The notes: generated by a model from the sequence alone, not told the origin. 43,889 nt of DNA from Verrucomicrobiota bacterium (GCA_038209745.1 JBBQXJ010000037.1:1-43889), one strand, 5' to 3'. Positions 14,751 to 32,377 are shown, counted from the stretch's first letter. Numbers and translations: made by a program.

Positions 14751-15857
14751 ATGGCGATCATTGGACAAATAGACGCACCGGGCTTCCGCCCCCTCCGCTC
14801 GGGCCGAGGCACCCAGCGACTGAAGCTGGGCTTCGTGCCGTTGTGCGACTGCGCTCCATTGGTCGTCGCGCAGGAACGCGGCTTCTTCGCGTCTCACGAT
14901 CTGAAGGTCGAACTCGTCCGCGAGATAGGATGGGCGACCGTGCGCGACAAGCTCGTCCACGGCGAACTGGACGCCTCCCACACGCCCGCCGGTCTGCCCC
15001 TCGCCTGCACCCTCGGCCTCGGCTGCGTGCCCACGCCCTGCCTCACCGCGCTCGTCCTGAATCTCCAGGGCAACGCCATCACCCTCTCCGGCTCGCTCTG
15101 GGAGAAGGGCGTGCGGGACGCCGCCACTCTCGGCGAATGGTTCCGCAGCGAACGCCGCCGAGAACCGCTCAGCTTCGGCATCGTCTTTCCCTTCTCATCC
15201 CATCGTTTCCTTTTGGAGAAGTGGCTCCGCACCGGCGGCCTCCTGCCGGAGCGCGATGTCCGATTCGTCGTCGCGCCGCCATCCCAGATGCCCACCAATC
15301 TCAAGGCCGGCCACCTCGCCGGCTTCTGCGCCGGTGAACCGTGGAACTCGGTCGTCGTCCAAGCCGGCGACGGCTGGTGTCCCGCGACCAGCGCCGAGCT
15401 CGCACCCGGCCATCCGGAAAAGGTCCTGATGGTCCGTCAGGCCTTCGCCGACCAAAACCACGACACCCACCTCCGTCTCGTCGCCGCGATCCTCGCCGCT
15501 TGCCGCTACTGCTCCGATCCCGCCCACCACGACGACATCGCGAAACTCATCGCCCAGCGCCGCTACGTGAACGCACCGGTGGATCTCGTTCGCCGCAGCT
15601 TCGGCGCCCGCTTCGATCCGGGCTACGGCCGCCCCTCGCCCTCCGGACCTTTCACCGTCTACCACGACCAGGACTGCAACGCCCCGTCGCTTGAAGGCGG
15701 CGCGTGGGTTCTCCGCCACTGCCTGCCCGCTCCCGTCGCAGGCCGCAGTTTTTCCCAGACCGTCCAGAATTCGTTCCGCGCCGATCTCTTCGAACAGGCC
15801 GCCTCCCTGGCTCCCGGAGACTCCGCCCACTCCAGCCGATCTCTCAACCCCGCCTAA
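14751..15857 (+). CDS. CmpA/NrtA-fold protein without signal peptide (NasS-like cytoplasmic nitrate sensor)
   Basis: [38 protein letters not shown]; no hydrophobic N-terminus. Confidence 0.85.
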
Positions 15858-15876
15858 GAGCCACCCACCAAGCCGC

Positions 15877-17253
15877 ATGAACCCACCCTCCGTGATACTT
15901 TCCCATCGGCCGGCCGCCTGTCCCAGGTTCCTCTCCACGACGTTCGGCGTCTGGCTCGCCGCAGTCGCCCTCGCCTCCGGCCTTCCGCTCCACGCGGCCA
16001 AGATCGAGAAGGAAGACCTCAAGTTCGGCTTCATCAAGCTGACCGACTGTGTCCCCATCGTCATCGCCAAGGAAAAGGGCTACTTCGAGGAGGAAGGCCT
16101 CTACGTCACCGTCGAAGCCCAGGCCAACTGGAAGATCCTCCTCGACCGCGTCATCTCCGGTGAACTCGACGGCGCCCACATGCTCGCCGGCCAACCCATC
16201 GCCGCCACCATCGGCTTCGGCACCAAGGCCGAGATCATCACGCCCTTCAGCATGGACCTGAACGGCAACGGCATCACCGTCTCCAAGGAGATCTGGGAGA
16301 AGATGGTCGCCGGCAATCCCGACCTGAAGGGCGACCATCCCAAGCGCCCGGTGAAGGCCGATTCGCTCCTGCCCATCGTCAAGGAGTTCAAAAACAAAGG
16401 CACGCCGCTCAAGCTCGGCATGGTCTTCCCCGTCTCGACCCACAACTACGAATTGCGCTACTGGCTCGCCGCCGGCGGCATCAGCCCCGGCTACTACACG
16501 CCGGCCGACATCAACGGCAACACGGACGCCGACACGTTGCTCTCCGTCACCCCGCCGCCCCAGATGCCGGCCACGCTCGCCCAAGGAACCATCCAGGGCT
16601 ATTGCGTCGGCGAACCCTGGAACCAGCAAGCGGTGCTCAAAGGAATCGGCGTCTCCGTCATCACCGACTACGAGATCTGGAAGGACAATCCTGAGAAGGT
16701 TTTTGGCGTGACCAAGAAGTGGGCCGAGGCGAATCCCAACACCATGACCGCCGTCACCAAAGCCCTCATCCGCGCCTGCAAATGGCTCGACGAAAAACCC
16801 GAGAACCGGGTCGAGGCCTGCAAGATCCTCAGCAAGTCCGAATACGTCGGTGCGGACTACAACGTCATCGCCAACTCGATGACCGGCACGTGGGAATACT
16901 TCAAGGGCGACAAGCGCGAGCTCCCCGACTTCAACGTCTTCTTCCGCCACAACGCCACCTATCCCTACTACAGCGACTGCATCTGGTATCTCACCCAGAT
17001 GCGCCGCTGGGGCCAGATCAACGAAGCCAAATCGGACGAGTGGTATGTCGAAACCGCCAAGAAGGTCTATCGCCCCGACCTCTATCTGATCGCCGCCAAG
17101 CAACTGGTCAAGGAAGGCAAGCTGAAGGAATCCGAAGTCCCCACGACCGACGGCTTCAAGCCCGCCACCGCCGAGTTCATCGACGGCATCGAATACGACG
17201 GCAAGAAGCCGAACGACTACATCAAGAAGTTCCCCATCGGCCGCAAGGACTGA
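15877..17253 (+). CDS. nrtA: Nitrate ABC transporter periplasmic binding protein (NrtA/NasF)
   Basis: Signal peptide, [44 protein letters not shown]. Confidence 0.93.
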
Positions 17254-17257
17254 GCGG

Positions 17258-17404
17258 ATGATCGACGCGCGGCTCGTTGAAGCGACGCGTCCCCTCACCC
17301 GCCCTGTCGGTCACCTCCTCCCCATCCGATGGGAAGAGGGCCGGGGTTGGCCACACAATCCCGATCTAGCCACGAAGACCTGTTTCCGAAGGACCAAACC
17401 ATGA
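17258..17404 (+). other. Bridge ORF 1 (48 aa) across a repeat-containing spacer
   Basis: Hand-translated: ATG 4 nt after the nrtA stop, open to TGA 17402-17404 overlapping nrtB ATG 17401. Confidence 0.5.
17291..17347. repeat. Palindromic CCCATCCGATGGG / GAGGGCCGGGGT repeat element
   Basis: Related copy at 30449-30487. Confidence 0.75.
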
Positions 17405-18390
17405 GTGAACCCGAATCCGAATCCACCCCGTTGCTCCAGCGTTGGCTGAAGAAACAGTCGCCGGAGCAGATCGTTCGCGCCCTCGCGGCGAACGTCGGTG
17501 TTCCGCTCCTCGCCATCGCCATCTTCCTGGGTTGCTGGTCGTTCGTCGCGGCCCACATCAAGGTCAGCTTCGGCCAGCTTCCGGGACCGGTGTCCGTCAT
17601 GGAACAGGCCAAGGGGATGTGGGCCGAGCACCGCATCGAGCGGGACAAGGAAACCGCCTTCTACAAACGCCAGGCCGAACGCAAGGCCAAGACCCTCGCC
17701 GAAGATCCGAACGCCGAATGGAAGGAGCGCAAATACGCCGGCAAGCCGACCTACATCGACCAGATCTTCACCAGTCTCCTCACCGTGTTCACCGGCTTCA
17801 TCTTTGCGGCCGTCGTCGCCGTTCCCCTCGGGATCGTCTGCGGACTCAGCAAGGCCTTCAACACGGCCGTCAACCCGTTCATCCAGATCTTCAAGCCCGT
17901 CTCGCCCCTCGCCTGGTTGCCCATCGTCATGTTGATGGTCAGCGGTCTCTACAATCCTCCGGAGCCGATGTTCCAGAAGGCCTTCCTCACCTCCGCCATC
18001 ACCGTCGCGCTCTGCTCCCTTTGGCCCGCGCTCATCAACACCACGTTGGGCGTCGCCTCCATCGACCCGGACTACCTGAACGTCGCTAAGGTCCTGAAGC
18101 TCGGCTGGTTCAAGAAGGTCTTCAAGATCGTCATCCCCGCCGCCATGCCGCTCATCTTCACCGGCCTGCGCCTCTCGCTCTCGGTCGGCTGGATGGTGCT
18201 CATCGCCGCCGACATGCTCGCGCAGAATCCGGGCCTCGGGAAATTCGTCTGGGACATGTTCCAGAACGGCTCCAGCCAGACGCTTTCCCAGATCATGGTC
18301 GCCGTCTTCACCATCGGCCTCATCGGGTTTGCCCTCGATCGGATCATGCTCACGCTCCAGAAGGCCGTCAGCTTCGACAACAACCGGTAG
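17401..18390 (+). CDS. nrtB: Nitrate ABC transporter permease (NrtB/NasE)
   Basis: QIFKPVSPLAWLP, LINTTLGV, GWMVLIAADML; multiple TM helices. Confidence 0.93.
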   Translation: MSEPESESTPLLQRWLKKQSPEQIVRALAANVGVPLLAIAIFLGCWSFVAAHIKVSFGQLPGPVSVMEQAKGMWAEHRIERDKETAFYKRQAERKAKTLAEDPNAEWKERKYAGKPTYIDQIFTSLLTVFTGFIFAAVVAVPLGIVCGLSKAFNTAVNPFIQIFKPVSPLAWLPIVMLMVSGLYNPPEPMFQKAFLTSAITVALCSLWPALINTTLGVASIDPDYLNVAKVLKLGWFKKVFKIVIPAAMPLIFTGLRLSLSVGWMVLIAADMLAQNPGLGKFVWDMFQNGSSQTLSQIMVAVFTIGLIGFALDRIMLTLQKAVSFDNNR

Positions 18391-18392
18391 CC

Positions 18393-18572
18393 ATGGATCG
18401 CGCCCACACACCCCCACGGAACGGAGAAGCCCCATGGATGCAGCATCGTTTCGCGGCGACCAAGCCGGGCGTTCCCGGTGAGCCGTCCCCGTCTGCGCCG
18501 GAGACGCCCGATGCATCGTGGCCAAGAGGCACAGCCCGGCGGCGCACCCGTTTCACGGAGGCTTCTAGGTGA
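18393..18572 (+). other. Bridge ORF 2 (59 aa)
   Basis: Hand-translated: ATG 2 nt after the nrtB stop, open to TGA 18570-18572 overlapping GTG 18569. Confidence 0.5.
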
Positions 18573-19702
18573 CCCTTTTGACCGTCAGCTTCCTGCCGTT
18601 GACCGATGCAGCGCCGTTCCTCGTGGCCCAGGCCAAAGGCCTGTTCAAGCAGCAGGGCGTCGAGGTCGCGCTGCGGCGCGAATCCAGTTGGACCGCGCTG
18701 CGCGACGCCCTCAACAAAGGCACCTCCCAAGCCGCGCAGATCCTGTTCGGCATGCCGGCCGCCGCCGCCTGCGGCCTGCTCGGGGACAAACAGAAACCGC
18801 TCGTCGTTCCCTGGATTCTCAGCCGCAACGGCCAGGCCATCACGCTCAGCAACCGCCATCGTGGCGTGGTCACCAGCGACTCCTCCGCGCTCCTGGCGCT
18901 GGCCCGCGAACGCCGCGATGCCGGCCGGCCGCTCGTCTTCGGCCACACCCTCCGCGTCGGCACCCACGCGATGTGGCTCCGCTATTGGCTGGCGGCCGGG
19001 GGCATCCATCCGGACGAGGACGTCGCGCTCATCACCGTCCCGCCCCCGCAGATGGTCGGCAACATGAAGACCCGCAGCGTCGACGGGTTCTGCGTAGGCG
19101 AACCGTGGAACGCCCGCGCCATTTCCGAGGGTCTCGGCTACACCGCCGTCACCTCGCAGGAAATCTGGCCCGATCATCCGGAGAAGGTCTGCGCGTTCTC
19201 CGGGGAATTCGCCGAAGAGAATCCCGACACCGTCGTCGCCACCCTGAAATCGCTCCATCAAGCCGGCCTCTGGCTCGACGACGAAGCCAACCACGACGAA
19301 GCCGCCACGCTTCTCGCCCAGCCCGATTTCTTGAACTGCGACGCCGCTTGGATCCGCTGCCGCTTGGGACCCAAGGTCGACTATGGCGATGGCCGCACCC
19401 GTTCGCTCGACCACTCGCTCGTTTTCGCCAAAGGCGGCGTGAACCGGCCGTCTCCCGGCTACGCCGTTTGGTTTCTGACCCAGCTCCGACGCTGGGGCCT
19501 GCACTACGGCACGCCCGACTACTCCGGAGTTTCCACCCGCGTCATGCGGCCCGACATCTACGAACGGGTGGTCGCAGAACTCGGCCTCACCGACACCGAG
19601 CCGACAGATCCCAAGGAAGCGTTCTTCGACGGCAAGGTCTTCGATCCATCCGATCCCGAAGGCTACGCCACCGGCTTCACCCTCAAAACCCTCCTCGGCT
19701 GA
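18569..19702 (+). CDS. Second signal-less CmpA/NrtA-fold protein (like the NrtC C-terminal regulatory domain)
   Basis: [46 protein letters not shown]; an in-frame TAG directly upstream rules out a longer N-terminus. Confidence 0.88.
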   Translation: MTLLTVSFLPLTDAAPFLVAQAKGLFKQQGVEVALRRESSWTALRDALNKGTSQAAQILFGMPAAAACGLLGDKQKPLVVPWILSRNGQAITLSNRHRGVVTSDSSALLALARERRDAGRPLVFGHTLRVGTHAMWLRYWLAAGGIHPDEDVALITVPPPQMVGNMKTRSVDGFCVGEPWNARAISEGLGYTAVTSQEIWPDHPEKVCAFSGEFAEENPDTVVATLKSLHQAGLWLDDEANHDEAATLLAQPDFLNCDAAWIRCRLGPKVDYGDGRTRSLDHSLVFAKGGVNRPSPGYAVWFLTQLRRWGLHYGTPDYSGVSTRVMRPDIYERVVAELGLTDTEPTDPKEAFFDGKVFDPSDPEGYATGFTLKTLLG

Positions 19703-19707
19703 CGCGC

Positions 19708-20616
19708 ATGGCATTCCTCGAAATCAAAAACGGCTCGAAGACCTACCTCCGGGGCAGCAGCCGGACCGAGGTCTTGACCGACATCAACCTGGAGATCAAC
19801 GAGGGCGAGTTCGTCGCGATCATCGGCTACTCCGGCGCCGGCAAGAGCACGTTGATCAACTTCCTGACCGGCCTCGTGAAGTCGGACACCGGCAGCGTGA
19901 CCCTGGAAGGCAAACCCATCGAAGGCCCGGGCCCGGATCGAGGCATCATCTTCCAGAACTACTCCCTGCTCCCTTGGCTCAGCGTCTTCGGGAACATCGC
20001 CCTGGCCGTCGATCATATCTTCCCAAAGTGGTCCGCCGAAAAGCGTCGCGAACACATCGAGAAGCACATCGCGATGGTCAATCTCACTCCGGCCCGCGAC
20101 AAGAAGCCCCGAGAACTCTCCGGCGGCATGCGCCAGCGCGTCAGCGTCGCCCGCACGCTCGCGATCAGCCCGCGAATCCTGCTCATGGACGAACCCTTCG
20201 GCGCGCTCGACGCGTTGACCCGCGCCACGCTCCAACAGGAAACCCTCCAGATCTGGGAGGGCGACAAGAAGACCGTCGTGTTGATCACCAACGATCCCGA
20301 CGAAGCCATCCTCATGGCCGACCGCGTCATCCCCCTGACCGCCGGACCCAAGGCGACCCTCGGGCCCAGCATCCCCGTGACCTTGCCGCGACCCCGTCGC
20401 CGCGCCGAGCTGAACGAAAGCTACGACTTCAAACAGATCCGCGCCGAAGTGGTGGACTACCTCCTCAAAGCCACCGACCGGAAGAAGGGCGGTTCGACCG
20501 TTAATCTCGTGCTGCCCGACATCGAGCCGGAAGACCTCTCCAACCCGAGATCCTACGCCGGCCGCAAACGCCCCGTCCGCCGCAACGAGATCAAACAGGA
20601 AACGGTGAGCCAATGA
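19708..20616 (+). CDS. Nitrate ABC transporter ATP-binding subunit (NrtC/D-like)
   Basis: GYSGAGKST, LSGGMRQR, MDEPFGALD; the H-loop reads ITND. Confidence 0.93.
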   Translation: MAFLEIKNGSKTYLRGSSRTEVLTDINLEINEGEFVAIIGYSGAGKSTLINFLTGLVKSDTGSVTLEGKPIEGPGPDRGIIFQNYSLLPWLSVFGNIALAVDHIFPKWSAEKRREHIEKHIAMVNLTPARDKKPRELSGGMRQRVSVARTLAISPRILLMDEPFGALDALTRATLQQETLQIWEGDKKTVVLITNDPDEAILMADRVIPLTAGPKATLGPSIPVTLPRPRRRAELNESYDFKQIRAEVVDYLLKATDRKKGGSTVNLVLPDIEPEDLSNPRSYAGRKRPVRRNEIKQETVSQ

Positions 20617-20948
20617 CGATCTACGCTCCAGCTGCCAAGTCCGGTCCAGGTACCGATGTTCCATCCGAGGCCCAAAGGGCCCGAATCAATCCAGCCCAGG
20701 GCAACGCCCTTGGTGGCGGCGAACCCATCCGTCCGAGTCCTGAAAGGGCGGACTATCGAACACCCGTCTTCTTCGCGGCCCGTCTGCGCGCAACAGCAGC
20801 GGCAACACGCTCCTTGGGGGCTGGGTTCATCGGATTCCTGTTCCGAAAGCGACGCGCCGCTCTGCGCTGGATTGGATTGATTCCGGCCCGTTGGGCCTCC
20901 GTTCCCGCCAGTCACCAAGCGTTCGCCACAGACCATCGATCATCATGA
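20613..20948 (+). other. Bridge ORF 3 (111 aa), repeat-derived
   Basis: ATGA overlap with the upstream stop (20613-20616) and with the downstream start (20945-20948). Confidence 0.5.
20669..20754. repeat. Cluster of REP-like hairpins (GGCCC-AAA-GGGCC; AGCCCAGGGCAACGCCCTTGG; AGTCC-TGAAAGGGC-GGACT)
   Basis: Short palindromes read directly from the sequence. Confidence 0.65.
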
Positions 20949-21829
20949 GCGCCTACCTGGACATCTCCCAGCTCACCAAGGTCTACCCTACGCCCAAGGG
21001 CCCGGCCGTGATCGTCCACAACTTCAACTTGAAGATGAAGGCGGGCGAGTTCGTGTCGATCATCGGCCACTCCGGCTGCGGCAAGAGCACCGTGCTCATG
21101 ATGGTGGCCGGCCTGAACCCGATCACCGAAGGCGTCATCGTTCTGTCCGGAAAGGAGATCACCGGCGCCGGTCCCGACCGTGGCGTCGTCTTCCAATCCC
21201 CTTCGTTGCTTCCGTGGCTCTCCGCGTTGGACAACGTGATGCTCGGCATCAACCAGGTGTTCTTCACCGCCAGCAAACAGGAGCGCCGCCAGATCGCGGA
21301 ATACTACCTCTCGGTCGTCGGACTCGGCGATTCCATGGACAAGAAGCCGGGCGAACTCAGCCAAGGCATGCGCCAGCGCGTGGGCATCGCCCGCGCCTTC
21401 GCGCTCAAGCCCAAGATGCTGCTGCTGGACGAGCCGTTCGGCATGTTGGATTCCCTCACCCGCTTCGAGCTCCAGCAGGTCCTCGTCAACCTCTCCCGCA
21501 AGAACCAGATCACCTCCATGATGGTGACGCACGACGTGGACGAGGCGCTCTTCCTCTCCGACCGCGTCGTCTGCATGACCGACGGTCCCGCCGCCGAGGT
21601 CGGAGACATTCTCGAAGTCAATTTCCCCCGTCCCCGCGACCGCAAGGCCGTGCTGGAACATCCGGACTACTACAGGCTCCGTGCCCACCTCATCGAGTTC
21701 CTCGAGATCCACGCCCACAAGAAGCACGCTTCCGCAGTGCCCCCCTTTTCCAAGCCCCCCAATACGGATCGATCCCTTGATCTGGATCAAACCAACCCCA
21801 CGCCAGAATCCGAGACTGCCCCTGCATGA
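20945..21829 (+). CDS. Nitrate ABC transporter ATP-binding subunit (NrtD/NasD-like)
   Basis: [34 protein letters not shown]. Confidence 0.94.
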
Positions 21830-23133
21830 AAACCACGCCCTACCGACCCACCCCAACCGCCGTTGCCCTGGCGTCGCTCTTGCCGATGCTGTCCGCGTCC
21901 GCCGCGGAGACGGCCGCCACCGCGCCAAGTTCGGTGGAGTCCTTCTTCAATTCCCAGGTCCCCTCGGCGTTCGCCAAGGGCAAGTTCAACCTGAATGCCC
22001 GGCTCCGCTTCGAGTATGCGGACCAGGAAGGCGGCACCCCGCCCGCCCACGCCTACACCCTTCGCACGCGCTTCGGCTACACGACCGCTTCGCTCTACGG
22101 GTTCCAGGCCATGCTCGAAGGCGAAAACATCACCGCCTTCGACAAGGGCTCGTATGCTCCCGGCCCCGGTTCGGTCGTTCCGAAAGATGTGGTCGCCGAC
22201 CCCACGGGCACCGAGATCAACCAAGCTTGGCTCGGCTACAGCAACACGAACTACATGGTTTCCGTGAAGGGCGGCCGGCAGGTGATCAATCTGGACAACC
22301 AGCGTTTCATCGGCGACGTCGGCTGGCGCCAGAACCAGCAGACCTTCGACGCCGCCGGTGCGAACTATTCGCCGATCAAGGGCCTCGACCTCTCCTACAA
22401 CTACGTCTGGAAGGTCAACCGCATTTTCGGCAACGACAGCACGCTCGCTGCGACGACGAGCAATTTCGACTCGGAATCCCACCTGATCAACGCGGCCTAT
22501 ACCTACTCGCCTTTGTTCAAGGTCGTCGGCTATGGATACCTGCTCGACCTCAAGACGGAACGCGGGGCCGCGCCCGGCAACGCCGCGAATTCTTCGGCCA
22601 CCTACGGTGCCTACGTCAGCGGCACCTACACCTTCGACAAGGCCAACAAGGGCACCGTCAGCTACCGCGCCGAATACGCCTACCAGTCCGACTACGCCGA
22701 CAGCGCGCTCAACTACGAAACCCGCTACTACGTAGGGGAACTCGGCGCGACCTACGGCATCTTCAACACCGGCGTCGGCTACGAAGTCCTGGGCTCCGAC
22801 AATGGAGTTGGCTTCAAAACCCCTTTGGCCACGCTCCACGCCTTCAACGGCTGGGCCGACGTCTTCCTCAACACCCCCGCAGGCGGCCTGAAAGACCTCT
22901 ACTTTTCCGTCGGAGCGATGTTGCCCGGCAATGTCCCGGTCAAGGCGATCTACCACAAGTTCGACGCCGAAACCGGCGGAGCGGACCTCGGTCAGGAATT
23001 CGATCTAGTGGCTTCCAGGAAGTTCGGCAAAAACTGGACCGTCCTCGCCAAATACGCCAACTACGACGGAAAGGATGCCCCGTCCGCCTTCGACAAGCAG
23101 GTCTTCTGGGGCCAGGTCGACTTCAACTTCTGA
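21826..23133 (+). CDS. Outer-membrane beta-barrel (alginate-export/AlgE-like porin family)
   Basis: Signal peptide, [43 protein letters not shown], terminal Phe. Confidence 0.85.
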
Positions 23134-23157
23134 CACCCGACCGGTCTTTCCCCGGTC

Positions 23158-23480
23158 ATGACCGCGCCTGCCTCCGGTCCCCAAGCAGCGCGGCCACCTC
23201 CGACATCAAGGAACAGGGCAAGGATCTCGTGCCCGTGATCACCGTCGTGGTCCGCAGCCTGAAGAACCGCGATGCCCTCGTCCCTGCCGTGCAGAACCTC
23301 GGCAAGGTCCGAGTGGCCCATCGACTTAAACCGGAACATGACGCGCCGTTGGGAGCGGAACTCCGATGGACCCTCGACAAGGGTCGCGGAGAAGCCTTCA
23401 TCCCCGAGGCGCTAAAAGCGTGGCCCGCGACCTGCACCATCCTCGCCACCGTGATGCCGGACGCCGCCGCACCAGTCTGA
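23158..23480 (+). pseudogene. Decayed single-domain globin (bacterial hemoglobin/flavohemoglobin-type globin domain)
   Basis: DIKEQGKDL...LVPAVQNLGK...KPEH..LG..L.WTL.KG.GEAF.PE...AW resembles globin helices E-H; helices A-C missing, ATG 23158 out of frame, proximal His position altered. Confidence 0.75.
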
Positions 23481-23519
23481 TCTATCCACTGCGTCCCCCG
23501 GAATAGATTGGTTGCTTTT

Positions 23520-23554
23520 GGCCAGCGTGGCCCCAGTCGGCCACGCTGGCCTTT
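23520..23554 (+). terminator. Terminator-like hairpin closing the transport operon
   Basis: Perfect 13-bp stem GGCCAGCGTGGCC-CCAGTC-GGCCACGCTGGCC then TTT. Confidence 0.75.
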
Positions 23555-23677
23555 ACCATTCCCAACTGGCGGCTTCCTCGGAGGGGCAGTCGAAGCCGAT
23601 TTTTTCGCTGTCCGCTTTGTCGATCTGCCATGGCCAGAACCGAAAAACACCCCGCCCACGGGCCCACAATGCCACCC

Positions 23678-23748
23678 ATGAACAGGATCGATGCGTTCGA
23701 TCTGAACCATGAAGCGGATCGGAACTTCGGACGGCTCTCGGCCTGCTA
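23678..23748 (+). promoter_or_regulatory. Second putative LysR box pair plus sigma54-type -24/-12 element
   Basis: ATGAACAGGATCGAT (23678), ATGAAGCGGATCGG (23709), CGGCTC-TCGGC-CTGCTA with GG-N10-GC (23732-23748). Confidence 0.5.
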
Positions 23749-23763
23749 TGGAGTTGAGCAGAG

Positions 23764-25563
23764 ATGCCTGCCCGCCTTCTATCAGATGATGAACTAGAGG
23801 AACCTACCGTCACGCCGTCGGACCCCAGGGCCTCGGCGCGTTCCGGCTCGCCCCGGTCGCATTTCTCCTCAGACATCCCGGTCGATCCGATTGCGACCTT
23901 CGTCGACGTGCTCCTCGCCGAGCAGCGCGACCTCACCGCGGCCGAGCGCTTCGCCTTCAAGCACCGCTCCGGCGAAATCCCCAGCCAGGCACGCTACTAT
24001 CGGAACCTGATTCCGCTGTCGAAACCCGGTGTCGGCGAGCAATACGCCTTCGAAGTCAATCTGGACCAGTGTTCCGGCTGCAAAGCCTGCGTCGCTGCTT
24101 GCCATTCGTTGAACGGCCTGGAGGACGAGGAATCGTGGCGGACCGTCGGATTGCTGATCGGGGAAGCCCCTGAAAAGCTCGGCGCTGACATCGGCTTCAG
24201 GGATCCGGCATCCGGTACCAGGCATCAACCTTCCGCTCCCATCCAGCGCACCGTCACCACCGCCTGCCATCACTGCGCCGATCCCGGATGTCTCAATGGT
24301 TGCCCAGTCCTCGCCTACGAAAAGGATCCTCTCACCGGCATCGTCCGTCACCTCGATGACCAGTGCATCGGCTGCCAATACTGCGTGATGAAATGCCCGT
24401 ATGAGGTGCCGAAGTTCTCCAAGCGCCTCGGCATCGTGCGCAAGTGCGACATGTGCAGCCAACGTCTCGCCGTGGGCGAAGCGCCTGCCTGCGTTCAATC
24501 CTGCCCCAACGAAGCCATTCGCATCGCCGTCGTCGATGTCGCGGAGGCGCTCGCCGTAGGCCGGCCATCCCTGCCCGGGAAGTTTTCCAAGACCGTGCCG
24601 GGCAAGGGCGCCCGACCTCCAAACCCATTTCTCCCCGCCTCGCCGCGTCCGGGAATCACCGTTCCCACCACGCGCTATTTCTCCACGGTCCTGACCACCT
24701 CCACCCTCCGCGCCGCCGACGAGGCCGCCCTGCATCCCGCCGACCCACATCTGCCACTGGTCGCGATGCTGCCGCTGTCCCAGCTCTCGGTGGGACTGAT
24801 GGTCGGCCTCGCTCTATCAGGCTCACTTTCTGCGCTGAAAACTGGAGTGACCGTTTCGTTCATCGCCATGTCGATCGCGCTCGGGGTGGCCACGCTGCAT
24901 CTCGGGCAGCCGCTGCGCGCCTGGAAAGCCTTCCTCGGCTGGCGCAAGTCGTGGTTCAGCCGCGAGGTCATCGCCTTCGGCCAATACCACGGTTTTCTCG
25001 GGCTCTTCACCGCCGTCCTCTGGCTGAAGCCCGAACTGCTGACCGCCGCGATCGGGCATCCGGCATCCGGCATCGCCGCCCTCCTCGGTCTCGGCTCCGT
25101 CTTCTGCTCCGTGATGCTCTACGCCGACACCCAGCGCGAATTCTGGTCGTTCGGCCGGAGCTTCGGGAAGTTCTTCGGCTCGGTCACGCTCCTGGGACTC
25201 GCCGGTAGCGGCACGCTGCTCGATAGCTCCGCGTGCTGGGGCGCGACCATCGCCGTGTTCCTCGCAAAGCTCGCGACGGACTTGGAGATTCTCCGTTTTC
25301 TCAAGGTTCCCGGGTTTCCACCTCTCAAGAAATCCGCGCTGCTCATCACCCGCCGTTTCAGCCGCATCGCCTTTGCGCGGGTCGCCTTCGGCATCTGCGG
25401 CGGGGTCCTGCTGCCCGGCGCCTTGCTCGTCGCGCGACATCCGTTCGGCCGCGCCACCGGGTTGGTAGCCGTCCTGCTTCTGCTGGCGGGAGAGATGTGC
25501 GAGCGCTTCCTTTTTTTCGCCGCCGTTGCCCCGACGAAGATGCCGGGAGGAATCTCCGCATGA
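23764..25563 (+). CDS. 4Fe-4S (DmsB-like) domain fused to a DmsC/YnfH-type membrane anchor
   Basis: [70 protein letters not shown] and TM helices. Confidence 0.9.
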
Positions 25564-27848
25564 CGAAGCCCGCCACCAGTCCGCAAGCCACCGTCCTCGG
25601 AAACGCCCTTCGCTCGATCAACGGCCGGATGACCACCGAGCTCGTCCAGGTTCCCGGCGACTTTGGTTTGGGCCAAGTACCGTCGCGTCTCGCGCCCGAC
25701 GCGACCACCACGTCCGTCTGCGGCTTCTGCTCCACAGGGTGTGGGCTGAAGATCCATCTCAAGGACGGCCAGGCCGTGAACCTGTCGCCGGAGACGGATT
25801 ACCCGGTGAATCTTGGCATGGCCTGTCCCAAGGGCTGGGAAGCGCTCACCCCGCTCGCCGCCCCGGACCGCGCCACCACGCCCCTTTTCCGCGGAGCTGA
25901 TGGCGTCCTGCGCCCCGTCGAATGGGAAACCGCGATCGGCGCCTTCTGCGACCGCTTCAAGAACATCCAGACCGAGCACGGCGCGCACTCCGTCGCTTGG
26001 ATCGGCACGGGCCAGATCTGCGTGGAGGAATTCGCCTTTCTCGGCGCTCTCGGGAAGTTCGGCATGGGAATGAAGCACGGCGACGGCAATACCCGCCAGT
26101 GCATGGCCACTGCGGCCGTCGCCTACATGGAATCGTTCGGCTTCGACGCGCCGCCCTTCACCTACGCCGACTTCGAGCAGTCGGACGTGCTGGTCTTCAT
26201 CGGCGCCAATCCCTGCATCGCGCACCCGATCATGTGGCAGCGCGTGCTGCGCAATCCGAACAAGCCCGAGATCATCGTCGTCGATCCCCGCCGCACCGAG
26301 ACCGCCGTCAACGCCACCCAGCACCTGCCGTTGAAGCCGAAGTCGGATCTCACCCTGCTCTATGGCCTGGCCCATCTGATCATCGAGAATGGCTGGATCG
26401 ACGAGGGGTTCATCGCGGAGTCCACGACCGGCTTCGACGAATTCCGCGAGTTCGTCCACCGCTTCACGCCGGACAAGGTCGCCGCCGAAACCAACCTGAC
26501 CGTCGGCCAGATCTACCACTGCGCCGAGTCCATCCATCGCGGCAAGGCCGTCAGCTTCTGGTGGACCATGGGCGTCAACCAGAGCCACGAGGCCACCCGC
26601 ACCGCGCAGGCCATCATCAACCTCGCGCTCATGACCGGAAACATCGGCAGACCCGGCACCGGAGCGAACTCGATCACCGGCCAGTGCAACGCGATGGGCA
26701 GCCGGCTCTTCAGCAACACGACCAATCTCCTCGGCGGCCACGATTTCAAGAACCCTGTCCACCGTGCGAAAGTGGCCGGCGTTCTCGGCATCGACGAAAG
26801 ACTCATCCCGCACGAAGCCTCCTGGGCCTACGACCAGATCATGGACGGGATCGACCGGGGCGAGATCAAGGGTCTCTGGATCATCGCCACCAACACCGCC
26901 CATTCCTGGATCAACCAGAACTCGGTGCCCGATCTCTTCAAGAAGCTGGATTTCCTCGTGGTGCAGGACATGTATGCCACGACCGAGACCGCGCAGCTGG
27001 CGGACCTCGTCCTGCCCGCTGGCGGCTGGGGCGAAAAGGAAGGAACGCTGATCAATTCCGAACGCCGCTTCGGTCCGGTAAAGAAGGTCTCCCGCGCGCC
27101 CGGCCAGGCATTGAGCGACTTCAACATCTTCCGCCTGATCGCCCATGCCTGGGGCTGCGGCGAGATGTTCCGCGAATGGACTTCGCCCGAAGCCGTCTTC
27201 CGCATCGTCCAGCAAATCACTGCGGGCCAGCCGTGCGACATCACCGGCATCGAGGGCTACCAGATGCTCGACGAATGCGGCGGCGTGCAGTGGCCGTGGC
27301 CGGCCAAGCCATACGGAGCCATGGAATCGAGGAGGGAAGGAGCCTTGGGAACCGATCGCTCCAGAAATCCAGAACTCCAGAACTCCGTCCCCGAGCAGGA
27401 GCGCCGCCTCTTCGCCGACGGCAAGTTCTTCACCCCCGACGGCCGCGCCAGGTTCGTCTATGAAGAACCACGCCCCGTCGCCGAACCGACCAGCCCCGCA
27501 TATCCGTTCGTGCTGTTGACCGGCCGCGGCACCTCGGCCCAGTGGCACACCAACAGCCGCACCGCCAAGTCCGCCATTCTCCGCCAGCTCTACCCAGCCA
27601 ACGCCTACGTCGAGATCAATCCCGAAGACGCGGCGCGCCTCGGCATCGAGCCCAACAGCCGCGTCGAAGTCTCCTCCCCACGCGGCCGGATCGTCGCCAC
27701 CGCCTTCGTCACCGGCACCGTGCAGCCCGGCCAGATCTTCATGCCCATGCACTATGCCGAAACGAACAAGCTGACGCACCCGGCCTTCGATCCGTATTCC
27801 CGCCAGCCCAGCTACAAGCACTGCGCCGTGAACCTCAAACCCGCCTGA
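25560..27848 (+). CDS. Cytoplasmic molybdopterin nitrate reductase, catalytic subunit (NasA/NarB-like)
   Basis: CGFCSTGC...[38 protein letters not shown]; no Tat RR and no C-terminal BFD domain. Confidence 0.92.
27315..27386. repeat. Inverted arrays of 8-bp units (GGAGnnnn ... CTCCAGAA) inside the nitrate reductase CDS
   Basis: GGAG/GGAA at 27315, 27323, 27331 and 27339; CTCCAGAA-ATCCAGAA-CTCCAGAA-CTCC at 27359-27386. Confidence 0.7.
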
Positions 27849-27851
27849 GCC

Positions 27852-28217
27852 ATGAACCGGATCGCCGAAGAAATCCGCACGTTCGACGCGGAGAAGCTGG
27901 TCCGCTTCTCCGACGAACGCGCCACCGTGACCGAACTGTCCGTCACGGAATTCTCGCGCATCGCCGTCTGGGGCGTGAAGCCAGGCCAGGAAGTCGGCGC
28001 CCACACGCATCCGGCCGGACAGGACACCTGGGTCATGGTTCGCGGCGAGCTGACCTACTACCTCGGCAACGGTCGGACCCGCACCATCCGCGCCGGCCAG
28101 CTCGACATGGCCGACCGCGACGAAGTCCACGGCGCCCGCAACGACGGGAGCGAAGACGCCGTCTTCCTCTCCATCTACAACGCCCCCGAGATCGGCTGGG
28201 CCAAGGCGCAGGCGTGA
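27852..28217 (+). CDS. Cupin domain protein
   Basis: PGQEVGAHTHPAGQDTWVMVRG and EVHGARN cupin motifs. Confidence 0.88.
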   Translation: MNRIAEEIRTFDAEKLVRFSDERATVTELSVTEFSRIAVWGVKPGQEVGAHTHPAGQDTWVMVRGELTYYLGNGRTRTIRAGQLDMADRDEVHGARNDGSEDAVFLSIYNAPEIGWAKAQA

Positions 28218-28438
28218 TGAAACCGATGGGTCCATCCGATCCGGTGCGTCCTGTCCGGCTTAGTGGCACAGGCGCACCCGCCTGTGTCCGTTCTCCGCGC
28301 GCCCCGATCCGGAGTTCCTCAGCAGACGCGGACGCCTGCTGCACCGACACAGGCGAGGGCGCCTGTGCCACTAAGCCGTTCCGCTTCGACGTTCGGCGTT
28401 CGCAGCGGGTTGTCCTTTTTTCCCCTTTCCCGCCATGA
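28217..28438 (+). other. Bridge ORF 4 (73 aa) carrying a REP doublet
   Basis: TGATG overlap with the cupin stop; TGA 28436-28438 overlaps nirA ATG 28435. Confidence 0.5.
28256..28378. repeat. REPIN-like doublet of inverted GTGG-type REP palindromes
   Basis: Perfect 20-bp IR CGGCTTAGTGGCACAGGCGC (28256-28275) / 28359-28378, extending to 33 bp with 2 mismatches; each arm is internally palindromic. Confidence 0.85.
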
Positions 28439-30264
28439 GCACCGCCACTCTCCCTGCCGCACCAACCGGCGAATTCACCGCCGAACAGAAAGAGTATCTC
28501 GCAGGGCTCCTGGCCGGCGTCGCCCAACGCCGGATGTATCCCTACATCGGTGTCATGGCCGGCGGCGCGTTCACCGCCACGCCCGGCGAAGGCGGCCCCA
28601 ACCTCGCCGCGCCACAGGCGGAGACTTTCCACGGCACACCCCTCGAAGACCTCTGCAAACAGGAGCTGTGGAAGCACCAGGAACACGGCCTCGATTGCTG
28701 GGACCAGTTGCTGGCCCACGCTTCGGAGAACAAGAAGCCAGACGACGAACACAACTACCGCTTCCGCTTTCATGGCCTCTTCTGGGTCTCCCCGAACCAG
28801 GAGTCGTTCATGCTCCGTTGCCGCATTCCGGCGGGTGAATTGACCGCCACCCAGATGCGCGGATTGGCCGACATCTCGGACGCTTGGGGCAACGGCAAAT
28901 CCGCCATCACCACCCGCTCCAACCTCCAGATCCGCGAGATCGAGCCAAAGAACGCCGTCAATGTCCTGACCAAGCTCCAGAGCATCGGCCTGACCGCCCG
29001 GGGCTCCGGCGTGGACAACGTCCGCAACGTCACCGCGTCGCCGACGGCCGGAATCGACCGCCAGGAGTATCTCGACACGAGGCCCTTCGCCCACGGCATC
29101 CACCATTACATCCTGAACAACCGCGACCTCTACGATCTCCCGCGCAAGTTCAACATCGCCTTCGAAGGGGGCGGCGCCATCGACACCGTCGCCGACACGA
29201 ACGACATCGGCTTCATGGCCACCCTCGTAGGCCGGGCATCCCGGCCTACGGTCTCGGGCACCTCGGTCAAGGATGGTTCCACCGTCGCGCTCGAACCGGG
29301 CGTCTATTTCCGGGTCGAGCTCTGCGGCATCACCGGCCACCAGCAGTTCGCCAGCGACTCGGGCATCGTCATCAAGCCCGGCGAGTCCATCGCCGTCAGC
29401 GCGGCCATTCTCCGCGTCTTCGCCGAACACGGGGACCGCACCGACCGCAAGAAGGCGCGCCTGAAGTATCTCGTGGACAAGTGGGGCGTCCCCAAGTTCC
29501 TCGAAGAGGTCCAGAGGAAGCTTTCGTTCCCGTTGGTGAAGCTGCCCATCGACCAATGCACCGTGCGGCATCCCTCGATTCGCCACGGCCACATCGGCAC
29601 TTTCCGCCAGGTCCAGCCCGGCAAGAACTACATCGGCGCCGTCATCCCCGTCGGCCTCATGTCGACGAAGCAGATGCGCCGCATCGCCGACCTCGCGGAG
29701 AATTATGGCTCGGGCCAAGTCCGTCTGACGCCGTGGCAGAATCTCATCCTGCCCGACATTCCCGACGGCTTTGTCGAAACGGTGAAACGCAACCTCGTGA
29801 AGACGGGCTTCCACCACGAAGCGACCCACATCCTCGGCGGGCTCGTCGCCTGCACCGGCAACAACGGCTGCAAATTCTCCAGCGCCGACACCAAGGGCAA
29901 CGCCATCGCCCTCGGCAACCACCTGGGCAAGAAGTTCGAGCTCGACCAGCCGATCAACCTGCACTTCACCGGCTGCCCGAATTCCTGCGCCCAGCACTAC
30001 CTGGGCGACATCGGATTCCAAGCGGTCCGGGTGGCCGTCGCCGGCGAATCGGTCGAGGGCTACAACATCGTCTTCGGCGGCGGGTTCGGCCACCAACAGG
30101 CCGTTGCGCAGCCCGTCTTCAGCAACATTCCCTTCACGGACATTCCCGCCCTGATCGAGAAGGTCGTCTCGGTCTACCAGTCGCAGCGCAAACCGGGCGA
30201 ACGCTTCGCCGAGTTCACCCGCCGCTTCAAAGCGAAGCAGCTCCAGGAGATGTTTTCGGAGTGA
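28435..30264 (+). CDS. nirA: Siroheme nitrite reductase (ferredoxin-type NirA family)
   Basis: TTRSNLQIR, DNVRNVT, LPRKFNIA, ACTGNNGC, TGCPNSCAQH; nitrate-cluster context. Confidence 0.92.
   Translation: MSTATLPAAPTGEFTAEQKEYLAGLLAGVAQRRMYPYIGVMAGGAFTATPGEGGPNLAAPQAETFHGTPLEDLCKQELWKHQEHGLDCWDQLLAHASENKKPDDEHNYRFRFHGLFWVSPNQESFMLRCRIPAGELTATQMRGLADISDAWGNGKSAITTRSNLQIREIEPKNAVNVLTKLQSIGLTARGSGVDNVRNVTASPTAGIDRQEYLDTRPFAHGIHHYILNNRDLYDLPRKFNIAFEGGGAIDTVADTNDIGFMATLVGRASRPTVSGTSVKDGSTVALEPGVYFRVELCGITGHQQFASDSGIVIKPGESIAVSAAILRVFAEHGDRTDRKKARLKYLVDKWGVPKFLEEVQRKLSFPLVKLPIDQCTVRHPSIRHGHIGTFRQVQPGKNYIGAVIPVGLMSTKQMRRIADLAENYGSGQVRLTPWQNLILPDIPDGFVETVKRNLVKTGFHHEATHILGGLVACTGNNGCKFSSADTKGNAIALGNHLGKKFELDQPINLHFTGCPNSCAQHYLGDIGFQAVRVAVAGESVEGYNIVFGGGFGHQQAVAQPVFSNIPFTDIPALIEKVVSVYQSQRKPGERFAEFTRRFKAKQLQEMFSE
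29226..29250. repeat. Perfect GTAG-type palindrome inside nirA
   Basis: CGTAGGCCGGG-CAT-CCCGGCCTACG (11-bp stem). Confidence 0.75.
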
Positions 30265-30271
30265 GCCAACA

Positions 30272-30568
30272 ATGACCGTTGGTCCTTCAAAAAACGCGCG
30301 CTCCATTCCGTGGAAACCATCCGGAATGAAGCCCACCGCGCCTTCAAGTCCGAAGGAACTCCGCCACTGCCTCTCCGCCGCCTCTCAAACCAACTGCGCA
30401 ACCGGATTGGGCGATAGGTCGAAGACCTCCTACCCGGCTTTCAGCCATCCTCTTCCCATCCGATGGGGGGAGGGCCGGGGTGAGGGGCTTCTCCCTGTTT
30501 TTCCAACCATCTTCCGTGGTCGACATCACCCCGTCGCTCCATCCCTCCCTATTTTCGCGAAGCCATGA
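30272..30568 (+). other. Bridge ORF 5 (98 aa), repeat-containing
   Basis: ATG 7 nt after the nirA stop; TGA 30566-30568 overlaps ATG 30565. Confidence 0.5.
30449..30487. repeat. Second copy of the CCCATCCGATGGG / GAGGGCCGGGGTGAGGGG element
   Basis: Matches 17314-17347. Confidence 0.75.
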
Positions 30569-32343
30569 GCCAGCCCGTCACCATTCTTCCCGTCCTCCCC
30601 GAGAATGCGCCGTTCAGCCCGGAGCAACGCGCCTACCTGAACGGTTTCCTCGCCGGACTCTATTCCTACACCACCGTGCCCGCCAGCGGGGCCACCTCGG
30701 CGCCCGCGACCAAGCCGCTCGTTCCGCTGACGATCTTGTTCGGCTCTCAAACCGGCACCGCCGCGAAGCTGGCCAAAGCCGTCTCCAAGGAAGCGTCGAA
30801 GCACGGCTTCGCCCCGACCCTCCACGACCTCGCGAAGTACCAGACCGCCCAGCTGGCCTCGGAGCCGAATCTCCTCGTCGTCGCCAGCACCTACGGCGAC
30901 GGAGAGCCGCCCGACAATGCGAAGGGGTTCTGGGATTTCCTCCGGGGCGCATCCGCTCCGAAGCTGGAACGGACGCGCTTCAGCGTGCTCTCCCTCGGCG
31001 ACTCGAACTACGCGAAGTTCTGCCAGTTCGGCAAAGACGTGGACGAGAAGCTGACCGCCCTCGGCGCCAAATGCGTCGCTCCCCGCATCGATTGCGACGC
31101 GGACTATGAGGAACCGTTCGCCAAGTGGCTCGCCACCGCCGTGCCGGCGTTGGCGCGGGCCGCCGGTTCTGCCTCCCCGGTGTCGGCCGCGACCGCATCT
31201 GACGAATCGGATCCAGCAGAACCCCGGTATTCCAGGAAGAAGCCCTTCCCCGCGAAGCTCGTCACCAATCGCAAGCTCAACGCCCCCGGCTCCGGCAAGG
31301 ATGTCCGCCATTTCGAGATCGAGCTGACCGGGTCCGACCTCGCCTACGAAGTCGGCGACGCTCTCGGCGTGCTGCCGACGAACGACCCTTTCCTGGCCGA
31401 CGAAATCGTCGCGGCCCTCGAAGCCAACGGGGACGACGCCGTCCCGGGAAAAGACGGTCGACCCGTTCCGCTGCGCGAAGCGTTGATCGGCCACTACGAC
31501 ATCGCCCGCATTCCGCAACCCTTCCTCAAGGCCCTCGCAGAACGATCCGGCGACGCCGCGCTGAACCAGTTGCTCGCGCCCGAAGCCAACGGTTCGTTGG
31601 CGAAATTTCTTTTCGGCCGTGAGGTGATCGACCTGCTCCTCGGCCATCCCACCGCCAAGTTCGGCGCGGCCGAGTTCATCGCCTTGCTGAAGAAGCTCCA
31701 GCCGCGGCTCTACTCCATTTCCTCCAGCCCCAAGGCCCATCCAGGCCAAGTCCACCTGACCGTCGGTGTCGTGCGTTACGAAACACACGGGCGCAAACGC
31801 GGCGGCGTCTGCTCGAACTTCCTCGCGGAACGCGCGGGTTCGGCACCTGTCCCGGTCTTCGTCCACGAGAACAAGGCCTTCCGCCCGCCCGCCGGCGACA
31901 AGCCGCTCATCATGTGCGGACCCGGCACCGGGATCGCCCCTTTCCGTGCCTATCTCGAAGAACGCAAAGCCACCGGCGCCAAAGGCCGCAACTGGCTCTT
32001 CTTCGGCGACCAGAAGTCCTCCACGGACTTCCTCTACGAAGAGGAGCTCAAGGCTTTCCACGAGGACGGGTTCCTCAATCGCCTCGACCTCGCCTGGTCA
32101 CGCGATCAGGCCGAGAAGGTCTACGTGCAGCAGCGGATGGTGGAGAACGCCAGGGAAGTCTTCGCCTGGTTGGAAGACGGCGCCGGTTTCTACGTCTGCG
32201 GCGACGCCAGCCGCATGGCCAAGGACGTCGATGCGGCACTCCATCAAGTCGTCGAAAAAGCCGGCGGTAAAACGTCCGAGCAAGCCGCCGGCTACATCCA
32301 GCAGCTCAAAGCCGAGAAGCGCTACCAGCGCGACGTGTATTGA
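30565..32343 (+). CDS. CysJ-like diflavin (FMN/FAD) NADPH oxidoreductase
   Basis: GSQTGTA, STYGDGEPPDN, LGDSNY, PRLYSISS, GPGTGIAPFR, YVCGDASRMAKDV, RYQRDVY. Confidence 0.94.
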   Translation: MSQPVTILPVLPENAPFSPEQRAYLNGFLAGLYSYTTVPASGATSAPATKPLVPLTILFGSQTGTAAKLAKAVSKEASKHGFAPTLHDLAKYQTAQLASEPNLLVVASTYGDGEPPDNAKGFWDFLRGASAPKLERTRFSVLSLGDSNYAKFCQFGKDVDEKLTALGAKCVAPRIDCDADYEEPFAKWLATAVPALARAAGSASPVSAATASDESDPAEPRYSRKKPFPAKLVTNRKLNAPGSGKDVRHFEIELTGSDLAYEVGDALGVLPTNDPFLADEIVAALEANGDDAVPGKDGRPVPLREALIGHYDIARIPQPFLKALAERSGDAALNQLLAPEANGSLAKFLFGREVIDLLLGHPTAKFGAAEFIALLKKLQPRLYSISSSPKAHPGQVHLTVGVVRYETHGRKRGGVCSNFLAERAGSAPVPVFVHENKAFRPPAGDKPLIMCGPGTGIAPFRAYLEERKATGAKGRNWLFFGDQKSSTDFLYEEELKAFHEDGFLNRLDLAWSRDQAEKVYVQQRMVENAREVFAWLEDGAGFYVCGDASRMAKDVDAALHQVVEKAGGKTSEQAAGYIQQLKAEKRYQRDVY

Positions 32344-32377
32344 GCCGGCCCAGCCGCAAGCCTCCATGCCGGATCTT

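Follow-up and report, generated by a model that had tools for sequence, protein, structure and literature searches.

The Nitrate Genes and Their Five Bridging Frames

The window analyzed here is the 43,889-nucleotide (nt) contig JBBQXJ010000037.1 (C37) of a Verrucomicrobiota bacterium (GCA_038209745.1; genome G000, a 4.58-Mb, 140-contig assembly of 63% GC), and our subject is a set of five open reading frames (ORFs) that cross the long spacers between its nitrate transport and nitrate reduction genes. The nearest named relatives are metagenome-assembled genomes of Verrucomicrobiota and Planctomycetota. We refer to these frames as bridges (ORF1 to ORF5), to the spacers as S1 to S5, and to the nrtA-nrtB, ATPase-ATPase and nirA-cysJ junctions as J1, J3 and J5. 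The 11 genes flanking the spacers were confirmed by Pfam and form two co-directional sets: a transporter set (an nrtA-type binding protein, an nrtB-type permease, a second NMT1_2 protein, two ABC ATPases and a porin-like gene) and a reductase set (an Fe-S/DmsC-like protein, a molybdopterin nitrate reductase, a cupin, a nirA-type reductase and a cysJ-like reductase). Genes were called with our own codon-usage gene finder, which is blind to upstream sequence (3548 genes called, 84.5% of the genome covered) and which chose the same five downstream starts, 17401, 18569, 20945, 28435 and 30565, as the original prediction that had been made from this sequence alone. The bridging frames are as follows.

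17258..17404, + strand: bridge ORF1, 48 codons, across S1 (17254-17400); ATG 4 nt past the nrtA TGA at 17251-17253, TGA at 17402-17404 overlapping the ATG at 17401
18393..18572, + strand: bridge ORF2, 59 codons, across S2 (18391-18568); ATG 2 nt past the TAG at 18388-18390, TGA overlapping the GTG at 18569
20613..20948, + strand: bridge ORF3, 111 codons, across S3 (20617-20944); ATGA overlap at both ends
28217..28438, + strand: bridge ORF4, 73 codons, across S4 (28218-28434); TGATG at the upstream end, ATGA at the downstream end
30272..30568, + strand: bridge ORF5, 98 codons, across S5 (30265-30564); ATG 7 nt past the TGA at 30262-30264, ATGA at the downstream end

The prediction held that every long spacer contains one frame that begins beside the upstream stop codon and ends on a TGA overlapping the next start, and both the sequence and the ORF list bore this out in 5/5 cases. 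The upstream ATG lay anywhere from a 4-nt overlap to 7 nt after the stop (-4, -1, +2, +4 and +7), and the downstream end was a -4 overlap in 5/5 (ATGA in four, GTGA in one). Each of the five is shifted by +1 from the frame of the gene that follows, and so does not show the in-frame reading known from Rickettsia palindromic elements (RPEs). The frame of ORF4 is already open from 27542 in the ORF list, and its ATG therefore does not delimit it. The other junctions in these operons were tight (5 nt, -4, -4 and 3 nt), as had also been claimed.

The observation that most starts lack a Shine-Dalgarno (SD) sequence extended to the whole genome, where GGAG preceded 6.5% of starts and 6.8% of a control window; about 50% of called starts carried C at -2 and at -1. 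The GTG at 18569 has a GGAGG 7 nt upstream, a canonical SD in a genome otherwise without SD signal, and for this reason the NrtA-like cistron may initiate independently. Two further downstream genes offer alternative in-frame starts farther upstream, nrtB at ATG 17329 and ATPase 2 at TTG 20891. The genes that adjoin the spacers were annotated as follows.

15877..17253, + strand: nrtA-type periplasmic nitrate-binding protein gene; Pfam NMT1_2, E 1.9e-96; start by codon score, the longest ORF running from TTG 15691
17401..18390, + strand: nrtB-type permease gene; Pfam BPD_transp_1; the alternative ATG 17329 lies within the repeat
18569..19702, + strand: second NMT1_2 (NrtA-like) gene; Pfam E 2.2e-82; GTG start
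19708..20616, + strand: ABC ATPase 1; Pfam ABC_tran; from the gene finder
20945..21829, + strand: ABC ATPase 2; Pfam ABC_tran; N-terminus aligns with that of G004, a same-genus genome
27852..28217, + strand: cupin gene; Pfam Cupin_2
28435..30264, + strand: nirA-type ferredoxin-nitrite/sulfite reductase gene; Pfam NIR_SIR and NIR_SIR_ferr
30565..32343, + strand: cysJ-like flavoprotein reductase gene; Pfam Flavodoxin_1, FAD_binding_1 and NAD_binding_1

A 630-nt gap (23134-23763), single-copy by blastn, separates the transporter and reductase sets; it contains a low-scoring 84-codon ORF at 23229-23480, and neither a promoter (simple scan) nor an Rfam match was found in it. A simple scan for terminators and promoters gave 15 terminator-like sites, where shuffles had 15.8, and no promoter (0), a result that speaks neither for nor against internal transcription units. 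The real genes are shadowed by very long antisense ORFs (1038, 767, 511 and 484 codons; for example 25119-28235 on the - strand). DNA of high GC content commonly has such ORFs, and an open frame by itself is therefore weak evidence in this genome.

Repeats, Folding and Coding Character of the Spacers

The spacers had been described as repeat-filled. In blastn searches against the genome this held for S1, S4 and S5, with 7-11, 14-22 and 13-18 non-self matches, respectively, over the range of blastn settings; it was weak for S3 (1-3 matches) and failed for S2, which is single-copy (0 matches). S1, S4 and S5 thus occur in the multiple copies that characterize repetitive extragenic palindromic (REP) and miniature inverted-repeat transposable element (MITE)-like repeats, S3 does so weakly, and S2 does not. 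Repeat matches covered 78-113 nt, or 37-53%, of S1, S4 and S5, and the five inserts were mutually unrelated except for about 30 nt common to S1 and S5. The repeats and inverted arms lie at these positions.

17273..17350, + strand: copy of a dispersed GC-rich repeat (family A) in S1, shared with S5; non-self matches align to S1 positions 20-97
30426..30535, + strand: family A copy in S5; non-self blastn matches align to S5 positions 162-271
20667..20899, unstranded: MITE-like core of S3; 37-nt inverted arms (20667-20703 and 20863-20899), 159 nt apart and 86% complementary; fold z -2.6
28256..28378, unstranded: large hairpin repeat in S4; 49-nt arms and a 25-nt loop; fold -108.2 kcal/mol, z -6.1

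The related claim that all spacers contain palindromes survived in part: S4 and S3 folded more stably than their shuffles, the folding of S1, S2 and S5 was not significant, and the supposed palindromes of S1 and S2 amount to 13 nt of 85% complementarity. No target-site duplication beyond ATGA was found by eye, S3 showing ATGA plus a weak CTAC match. There were no tandem arrays in the spacers, save for a weak run of 3.9 copies of 7 nt in S4, and Rfam gave 0 matches at E <= 1 across 15000-33000. All five spacers are rich in C (36-38%) relative to G (23-31%).

At the highest count, the S4 hairpin had 22 non-self matches, of which 21 fell at 12 other genome sites and 1 was its own inverted arm. 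Family A, the S4 hairpin and a further family, B, had copies facing either way, within called genes as well as in convergent and divergent spacers, and the open frames of these copies varied. As a side observation, 8/13 merged copies of the S4-hairpin family lie inside ORFs of the gene finder (examples are C11:4464-4515, C18:29702-34840, C3:65667-65773 and C4:35759-35809, with others at C71:16273-16327, C8:18853-18905 and C82:12011-12114), and these are either in-frame intragenic repeats or false gene calls. Another element, of about 390 nt and 95% identity, occurs at C16:64120-64513 and C33:366-758 and was probably mobile recently.

The bridge frames had a GC content at third codon positions (GC3) of 0.58-0.67, against 0.83-0.90 in the flanking genes, and a coding score of -0.12 to -0.34 per codon against +0.39 to +0.58; for ORF1 the values were 0.65 and -0.12. 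Searches of Pfam and NCBIfam returned 0 matches for the five bridge peptides and likewise nothing for bridges from relatives. The bridge frames are not protein-coding in appearance and probably encode nothing useful. Frameshifted genes or assembly errors were rejected as a general explanation because these frames lack coding composition; an explanation of this kind is conceivable for S2 alone.

History of the Junctions in Related Genomes

It had been expected that orthologous operons would show direct overlaps or different inserts obeying the same rule, and the junctions of relatives were indeed either tight or occupied by other inserts that follow it. The same-genus genomes show NasA identities of about 78-80%. 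J3 is a plain ATGA overlap in G001, G003, G004 and G006 (4/4 genus genomes with an ortholog), and G000 has here a 328-nt insert, with a 233-nt core, that is flanked on either side by this ATGA. J5 reads TGA, 9 nt, then ATGAAC in G003, whereas the J5 spacer is 231 nt in G004 and 441 nt in G001. The G001 spacer consists of the G004 insert and a nested insert of 210 nt that preserves both frame and openness; both genomes retain ACCCATGA beside the stop, and frames of 77 codons (G004) and 147 codons (G001) bridge the junction to its ATGA start. S5 of G000 aligned poorly with this insert (47% mean column identity), suggesting that the two are either independent or too diverged to tell.

In the more distant G026, J1 is an ATGA overlap. 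A 298-nt spacer between the FeS and NasA genes of G020 carries ATGA at both ends and is bridged. No cupin was found between NasA and NirA in G001, G003 and G004, the NasA-NirA gap being 3 nt in G004; G008, a more distant genome, has a cupin after NasA.

S2 differed from the other spacers and is not a repeat insertion as had been supposed. It is single-copy in G000 and homologous to a spacer of G004, and in G001, G003 and G004 its homolog is in frame with the NrtA-like gene, with an ATG 26-30 nt after the upstream stop. In G000 the sequence is shifted to +1 and ends on GTGA. We therefore read S2, on this comparison, as a frame-shifted leader of the next gene. The slip is either genuine, in leader sequence of low complexity, or, with lower probability, an artifact of the assembly.

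Insertion history was also followed by aligning loci of G000 to the genus genomes with blastn. Two bridged spacers elsewhere in the genome, C113:7340-7679 (340 nt) and C26:13434-13872 (439 nt, crossed by a 147-codon frame with ATGA at both ends), were not present in relatives; in 5/5 relatives the alignments of the flanks lay 25-61 nt apart, compared with 384-501 nt in G000. Bridges derived from tight junctions in 4/4 such tests (J3, J5, C113 and C26). Because the same-genus junctions are tight at these points, the ATG beside the upstream stop is the old start of the downstream gene, which the inserted DNA left behind, S2 excepted. On this reading, a bridge ORF is the trace of an insertion into a stop/start junction that had been tight, and S2 is instead an out-of-frame leader.

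The same approach applied to 19 non-bridged repeat spacers found flanks adjacent in relatives in 4 cases (C116, C34, C52 and C58:16660, with ancestral spacers of 23-109 nt), flanks that were not neighbors in 9, and 6 uninformative cases in which a flank was not found. None of the 13 informative spacers goes back to overlapping genes or to a gap of at most 10 nt, in a sample that consists mostly of spacers without a start codon by the stop and is thus an imperfect control.

Frame Openness Compared with Chance

Open frames are common in this genome. Per-frame openness in co-directional spacers was 48.5% at 100-150 nt, 35% at 151-200 nt, 24% at 201-250 nt and 14% at 251-350 nt, and 47% of called starts read NTGA. 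The claim that the pattern exceeds chance nevertheless held strongly at the locus itself, where the strict pattern arose in dinucleotide shuffles of the five spacers with chances of 0.03, 0.005, 0.24, 0.09 and 0/200. If the ATG, the NTGA and the frame are all taken as given, the product of the empirical openness rates is still 3.5e-4, and this does not yet count the 1/3 chance of a matching frame at each spacer. Across the genome, 18/731 co-directional spacers of 100-400 nt obeyed the strict rule, 5 of them in this locus, and shuffles gave 9.2 (sd 2.6).

We also compared frames by class in 1122 co-directional spacers of 60-500 nt, three sense frames each and the locus excluded. A frame was termed bridge if it ends on the TGA of an NTGA start, gene if it is the frame of the downstream gene, and non-productive otherwise, and each class was split according to whether an ATG fell between positions -4 and +10 relative to the upstream stop. 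Bridge frames were open in 26/39 cases with the ATG and 196/437 (44.9%) without it (p = 0.011), and gene frames in 56/103 and 405/1012 (40.0%; p = 0.006). Non-productive frames went the other way, 18/90 with the ATG being open against 659/1664 (39.6%) without (p = 1.4e-4), and the difference between bridge and non-productive frames that both have the ATG was pronounced (p = 5.8e-7). It persisted in the 396/1122 spacers with an unambiguous downstream start, one that no other start codon separates from the preceding in-frame stop (15/20 versus 7/34, p = 1.4e-4), and shuffles with the first 14 nt fixed gave an expectation of 14.9 open bridge frames where 26 were observed.

The contrast was sharpest in the 139 repeat-bearing spacers, where frames with the ATG were open in 9/10 bridge, 10/12 gene and 0/16 non-productive cases (p = 8.7e-8) over baselines of 39%, 20% and 26%, respectively. 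The frame-class effect is concentrated mainly in these spacers. Real small genes were rejected as the source of this repeat-bearing signal because the sequences are dispersed repeats; elsewhere in the genome they are a real confound. The direction was the same in a replicate on other genomes, which comprised 90 loci and 1.5 Mb and for which a gene model was trained on each locus: bridge frames with the ATG were open in 7/13 cases, gene frames in 12/23 and non-productive frames in 4/37, over baselines of 26-31%; leaving out the same-genus loci weakened this to 4/10 versus 4/35.

When a repeat-bearing spacer had its ATG in the frame of the gene, that frame was usually open through the repeat into the gene (the 10/12 above; examples are C25:30638-30885, C85:12384-12718, C50:10301-10757 and C56:4789-5131), which suggests RPE-like N-terminal extensions made of translated repeat DNA.

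A Putative Ribosome Relay

The geometry of the bridge frames, their insertion history, their non-coding composition and the frame-specific bias are observations that a single account could join. We consider it probable, at roughly 60%, that the frames constitute a selected ribosome relay. In this proposal, a ribosome would complete gene A and restart at the old ATG, translate the insert, unfolding hairpins en route, and then terminate at the TGA overlapping gene B's start codon and restart there. Inserts that break the relay in a coupled junction would be lost, and bridge frames would be held open by selection while their sequence encodes nothing useful. Selection of this kind may be expected because the genome has no SD signal and internal cistrons would depend on ribosomes handed over to them. 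From the sequence data we infer translation of the frames, reinitiation at their ends and a selective cause.

A wider version of this proposal can be framed, and we regard it as less likely than not. In an SD-poor lineage, terminated ribosomes might restart at any stop-adjacent ATG and thereby impose a genome-wide intergenic 'frame grammar', in which frames that deliver ribosomes to a start, by relay or by fusion, stay open, overrunning frames are closed, and selfish repeats can enter coupled junctions only in relay-compatible form. Such a grammar, if true, would leave a pool of translated junk cistrons of 50-150 codons as a possible source of new proteins.

If the relay is real, it explains how operons with little SD use tolerate repeats while downstream expression is kept, and it places some 'intergenic' DNA under a reading-frame selection that annotation pipelines and evolutionary models ignore. 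The combination of an ATG by the stop with frame class would then be a simple sequence test for the intergenic reach of reinitiation in any genome. It also calls for caution in annotation, as ORFs of 50-150 codons with perfect operon geometry are not necessarily protein genes.

Several results weigh against this interpretation or narrow it. Overall openness was equal in sense (35.1%) and antisense (35.2%) frames and did not differ in convergent or divergent spacers, and the genome-wide count against shuffles by which the original prediction was to be judged was positive at the locus and weakly so outside it (13 strict bridges versus 8.9 expected). In repeat-free spacers the bridge excess was not significant (17/29 versus 174/380, p = 0.25). 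The prediction that repeat insertions persist only when they form relays is contradicted by 89/108 repeat-bearing co-directional spacers (100-400 nt, off-locus) that have no productive ATG-led frame: 76 of the 108 had no ATG by the stop and 13 closed early, next to 7 strict bridges, 7 in-frame cases and 5 frames that stop <=25 nt from the start. The same repeat families are found unbridged in every context and are mostly unbridged elsewhere. In C34 a repeat sits in what is a junction of about 23 nt in G001 and G003, with no relay, and this is the nearest case to a counter-example. At the ATPase junction of G002, a 150-nt spacer (L114:3937-4086) has ATGA at both ends and a frame that stops 22 nt short; this ATPase pair is more divergent (62% identity), the first bases of its spacer resemble the start of S3, and we view it as a near-miss relay.

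Homologous operons tell a similar story. Among labelled operon genes of the 90 loci, 174/227 junctions were tight and 53 long, and 34/53 long junctions had no ATG by the upstream stop, so that a relay is not a general requirement. The remaining long junctions comprised 5 strict bridges, 3 in-frame, 5 near-end, 4 that close early and 2 that overrun, and one of the 5 strict bridges is a real conserved 86-codon gene. Furthermore, all gene starts rest on our own simple gene finder, the relatives are non-independent samples, and co-transcription across the spacers is an assumption. Relays mark insertions into coupled junctions and are not general to repeats or to long spacers.

Other Explanations for the Open Frames

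Translation of the inserts might serve to shield a C-rich stretch from Rho-dependent termination or RNases, with no role for reinitiation. Shielding from polarity is plausible because Rho is encoded (PF07497, 112.7 bits, in a 634-codon frame) and each of the five spacers is rich in C and poor in G; that untranslated RNA gives rise to polarity is textbook knowledge (PMC12548453). However, shielding would work in any frame, yet overrunning frames were depleted both overall (18/90) and in repeat spacers (0/16), and it does not need a stop placed exactly on the next start codon, as seen in 5/5 bridges. Frames that terminate at the next gene's start or continue into that gene are thus favored, those that run past its start are avoided, and both trends point to start delivery. 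Although shielding and start delivery are not mutually exclusive, we consider shielding in place of reinitiation unlikely.

The bridges could instead be neutral scars, in which ATGA was duplicated on insertion so that both genes stayed alive, GC-rich inserts were poor in stops, and the resulting ORFs are idle. The abundance of open frames on all strands and in all orientations (48% at 100-150 nt to 14% at 251-350 nt), the 47% of starts that read NTGA, the 4/5 old ATGs that read ATGA and the modest off-locus excess all fit this account. Even with the duplicated ATGA and the right frame granted to it, however, the openness product is 3.5e-4. Neutral scars also predict equal openness across frame classes, whereas frames with the ATG were open in 26/39 bridge and 18/90 non-productive cases, and in repeat spacers 19/22 productive frames were open compared with 0/16 non-productive ones. 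The nested 210-nt insert of G001 kept both frame and openness, and 0/13 informative tests showed an unbridged insertion into a formerly tight junction. Taken together, these findings make chance and neutrality rather improbable as a full account.

A design borne by the elements themselves seems very improbable. Mobile repeats could bring an open frame with them, insert selectively at start codons and have lost, in the course of evolution, any harmful effect on operons, as proposed for mycobacterial interspersed repetitive units (MIRUs), described as inserting at start codons with an internal ORF coupled at -4 nt (PMC12548453). Consistent with this, several copies of family B, which is about 200 nt long, have an ATG close to one of their ends, and the bridged spacer C32:37510-37726 consists almost wholly of this family. 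The five inserts, however, are unrelated save for the short S1/S5 stretch; repeat cores cover only 37-53% of S1, S4 and S5, and S2 has none. No tandem units were present, and families A, S4 and B occur in both orientations and all contexts with variable frames.

We give almost no credence to the bridges being unrecognized real small protein genes: small genes of operons do show identical start/stop geometry, and a conserved 86-codon ORF between two transporter genes of G001, G003 and G004 that at first scored as a bridge proves the confound real, but the bridge frames have non-coding composition and belong to no Pfam or NCBIfam family, ORF3 and ORF5 are absent from same-genus genomes with tight junctions, and ORF1, ORF4 and ORF5 cross dispersed repeats. 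That conserved ORF lies between the second NrtA-like and permease genes (L113:5093-5350, - strand; L112:7084-7344, + strand; L021:15046-15202 region, - strand), has 86 codons in G003 and an internal deletion in G004, and is coupled at both ends. It had no Pfam or NCBIfam match, and by appearance it encodes a genuine small membrane protein that belongs to the nitrate transporter operon.

Comparison with Known Systems

The relay that we favor has precedents, which we compare here. Termination-reinitiation coupling is established at ATGA and TGATG overlaps (Huber et al. 2019, PMC6728339; Brown & Wade 2025, PMC12548453), and -4 or -1 overlaps of this kind stand at the downstream ends of all five bridges and at two upstream ends. 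Classic coupling joins two real genes, whereas here a junk cistron is interposed and two successive reinitiations would be needed.

A close natural parallel is the MIRU (Supply et al. 1997, as summarized in Brown & Wade 2025). MIRUs appear to insert at start codons and carry an internal ORF coupled at -4 nt, an arrangement thought to allow the insert to persist with little effect on expression, and it has been proposed that some short ORFs may exist solely for ribosome delivery (Brown & Wade 2025, PMC12548453). The bridges share with them repetitive DNA at a start codon, co-directional genes, a non-functional crossing ORF and -4 nt coupling downstream. MIRUs, unlike the inserts described here, form one family of short, often tandem units that own their ORF; the present inserts are unrelated to one another, 147-328 nt long, non-tandem and partly unique in sequence, and the same families are mostly unbridged elsewhere. 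The start-codon junction and the -4 overlap of MIRUs are thus found at this locus, and a single recurring, often tandem unit owning its ORF is not. The hosts differ as well, mycobacteria in the one case and a verrucomicrobial metagenome-assembled genome without SD signal in the other.

Short ORFs internal to integron attC sites are proposed to relieve stem-loop barriers by termination-reinitiation, and ORF-11, ORF-17 and ORF-18 are located in attI1 (PMC8876359). Like the bridges, these are short, sequence-irrelevant ORFs over a hairpin-forming site that are proposed to feed the next start. However, ORF-11 has its own SD, whereas the bridges start at a relic start codon beside a stop; the bridges have 48-111 codons compared with 11-18; and the bridges lie among the genes of a conserved nitrate operon with no integron context noted, though no search aimed at an integrase or attC was made.

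RPEs insert in frame into genes (MITE review, PMC10969869). They resemble the present repeats in that palindromic sequences are tolerated by staying translatable, as in the 10/12 off-locus in-frame repeat spacers that are open, and they differ from the five bridges of the locus, which are read in another frame than the downstream gene and terminate at its start codon.

In synthetic bicistronic designs, a short SD-driven leader cistron overlaps the start of a gene and removes the effect of secondary structure. The bridges would likewise be throw-away leaders that deliver ribosomes, and they are natural, long and chained inside an operon.

The relay concept is therefore not new, because MIRUs, integron short ORFs and in-frame RPEs have already been described, and the class of position-functional ORFs put forward in the original prediction has precedents in MIRUs and in attC/attI short ORFs. 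Our search of the literature found no relay ORFs across REP/MITE insertions outside MIRUs and integrons, and nothing that combined MITEs with translational coupling. What is new here is the host lineage and the chaining of several unrelated, long, non-tandem inserts in one operon; the evidence that the host junction, and not the element, dictates the outcome; and a genome-wide frame-class statistic that includes the depletion of overrunning frames.

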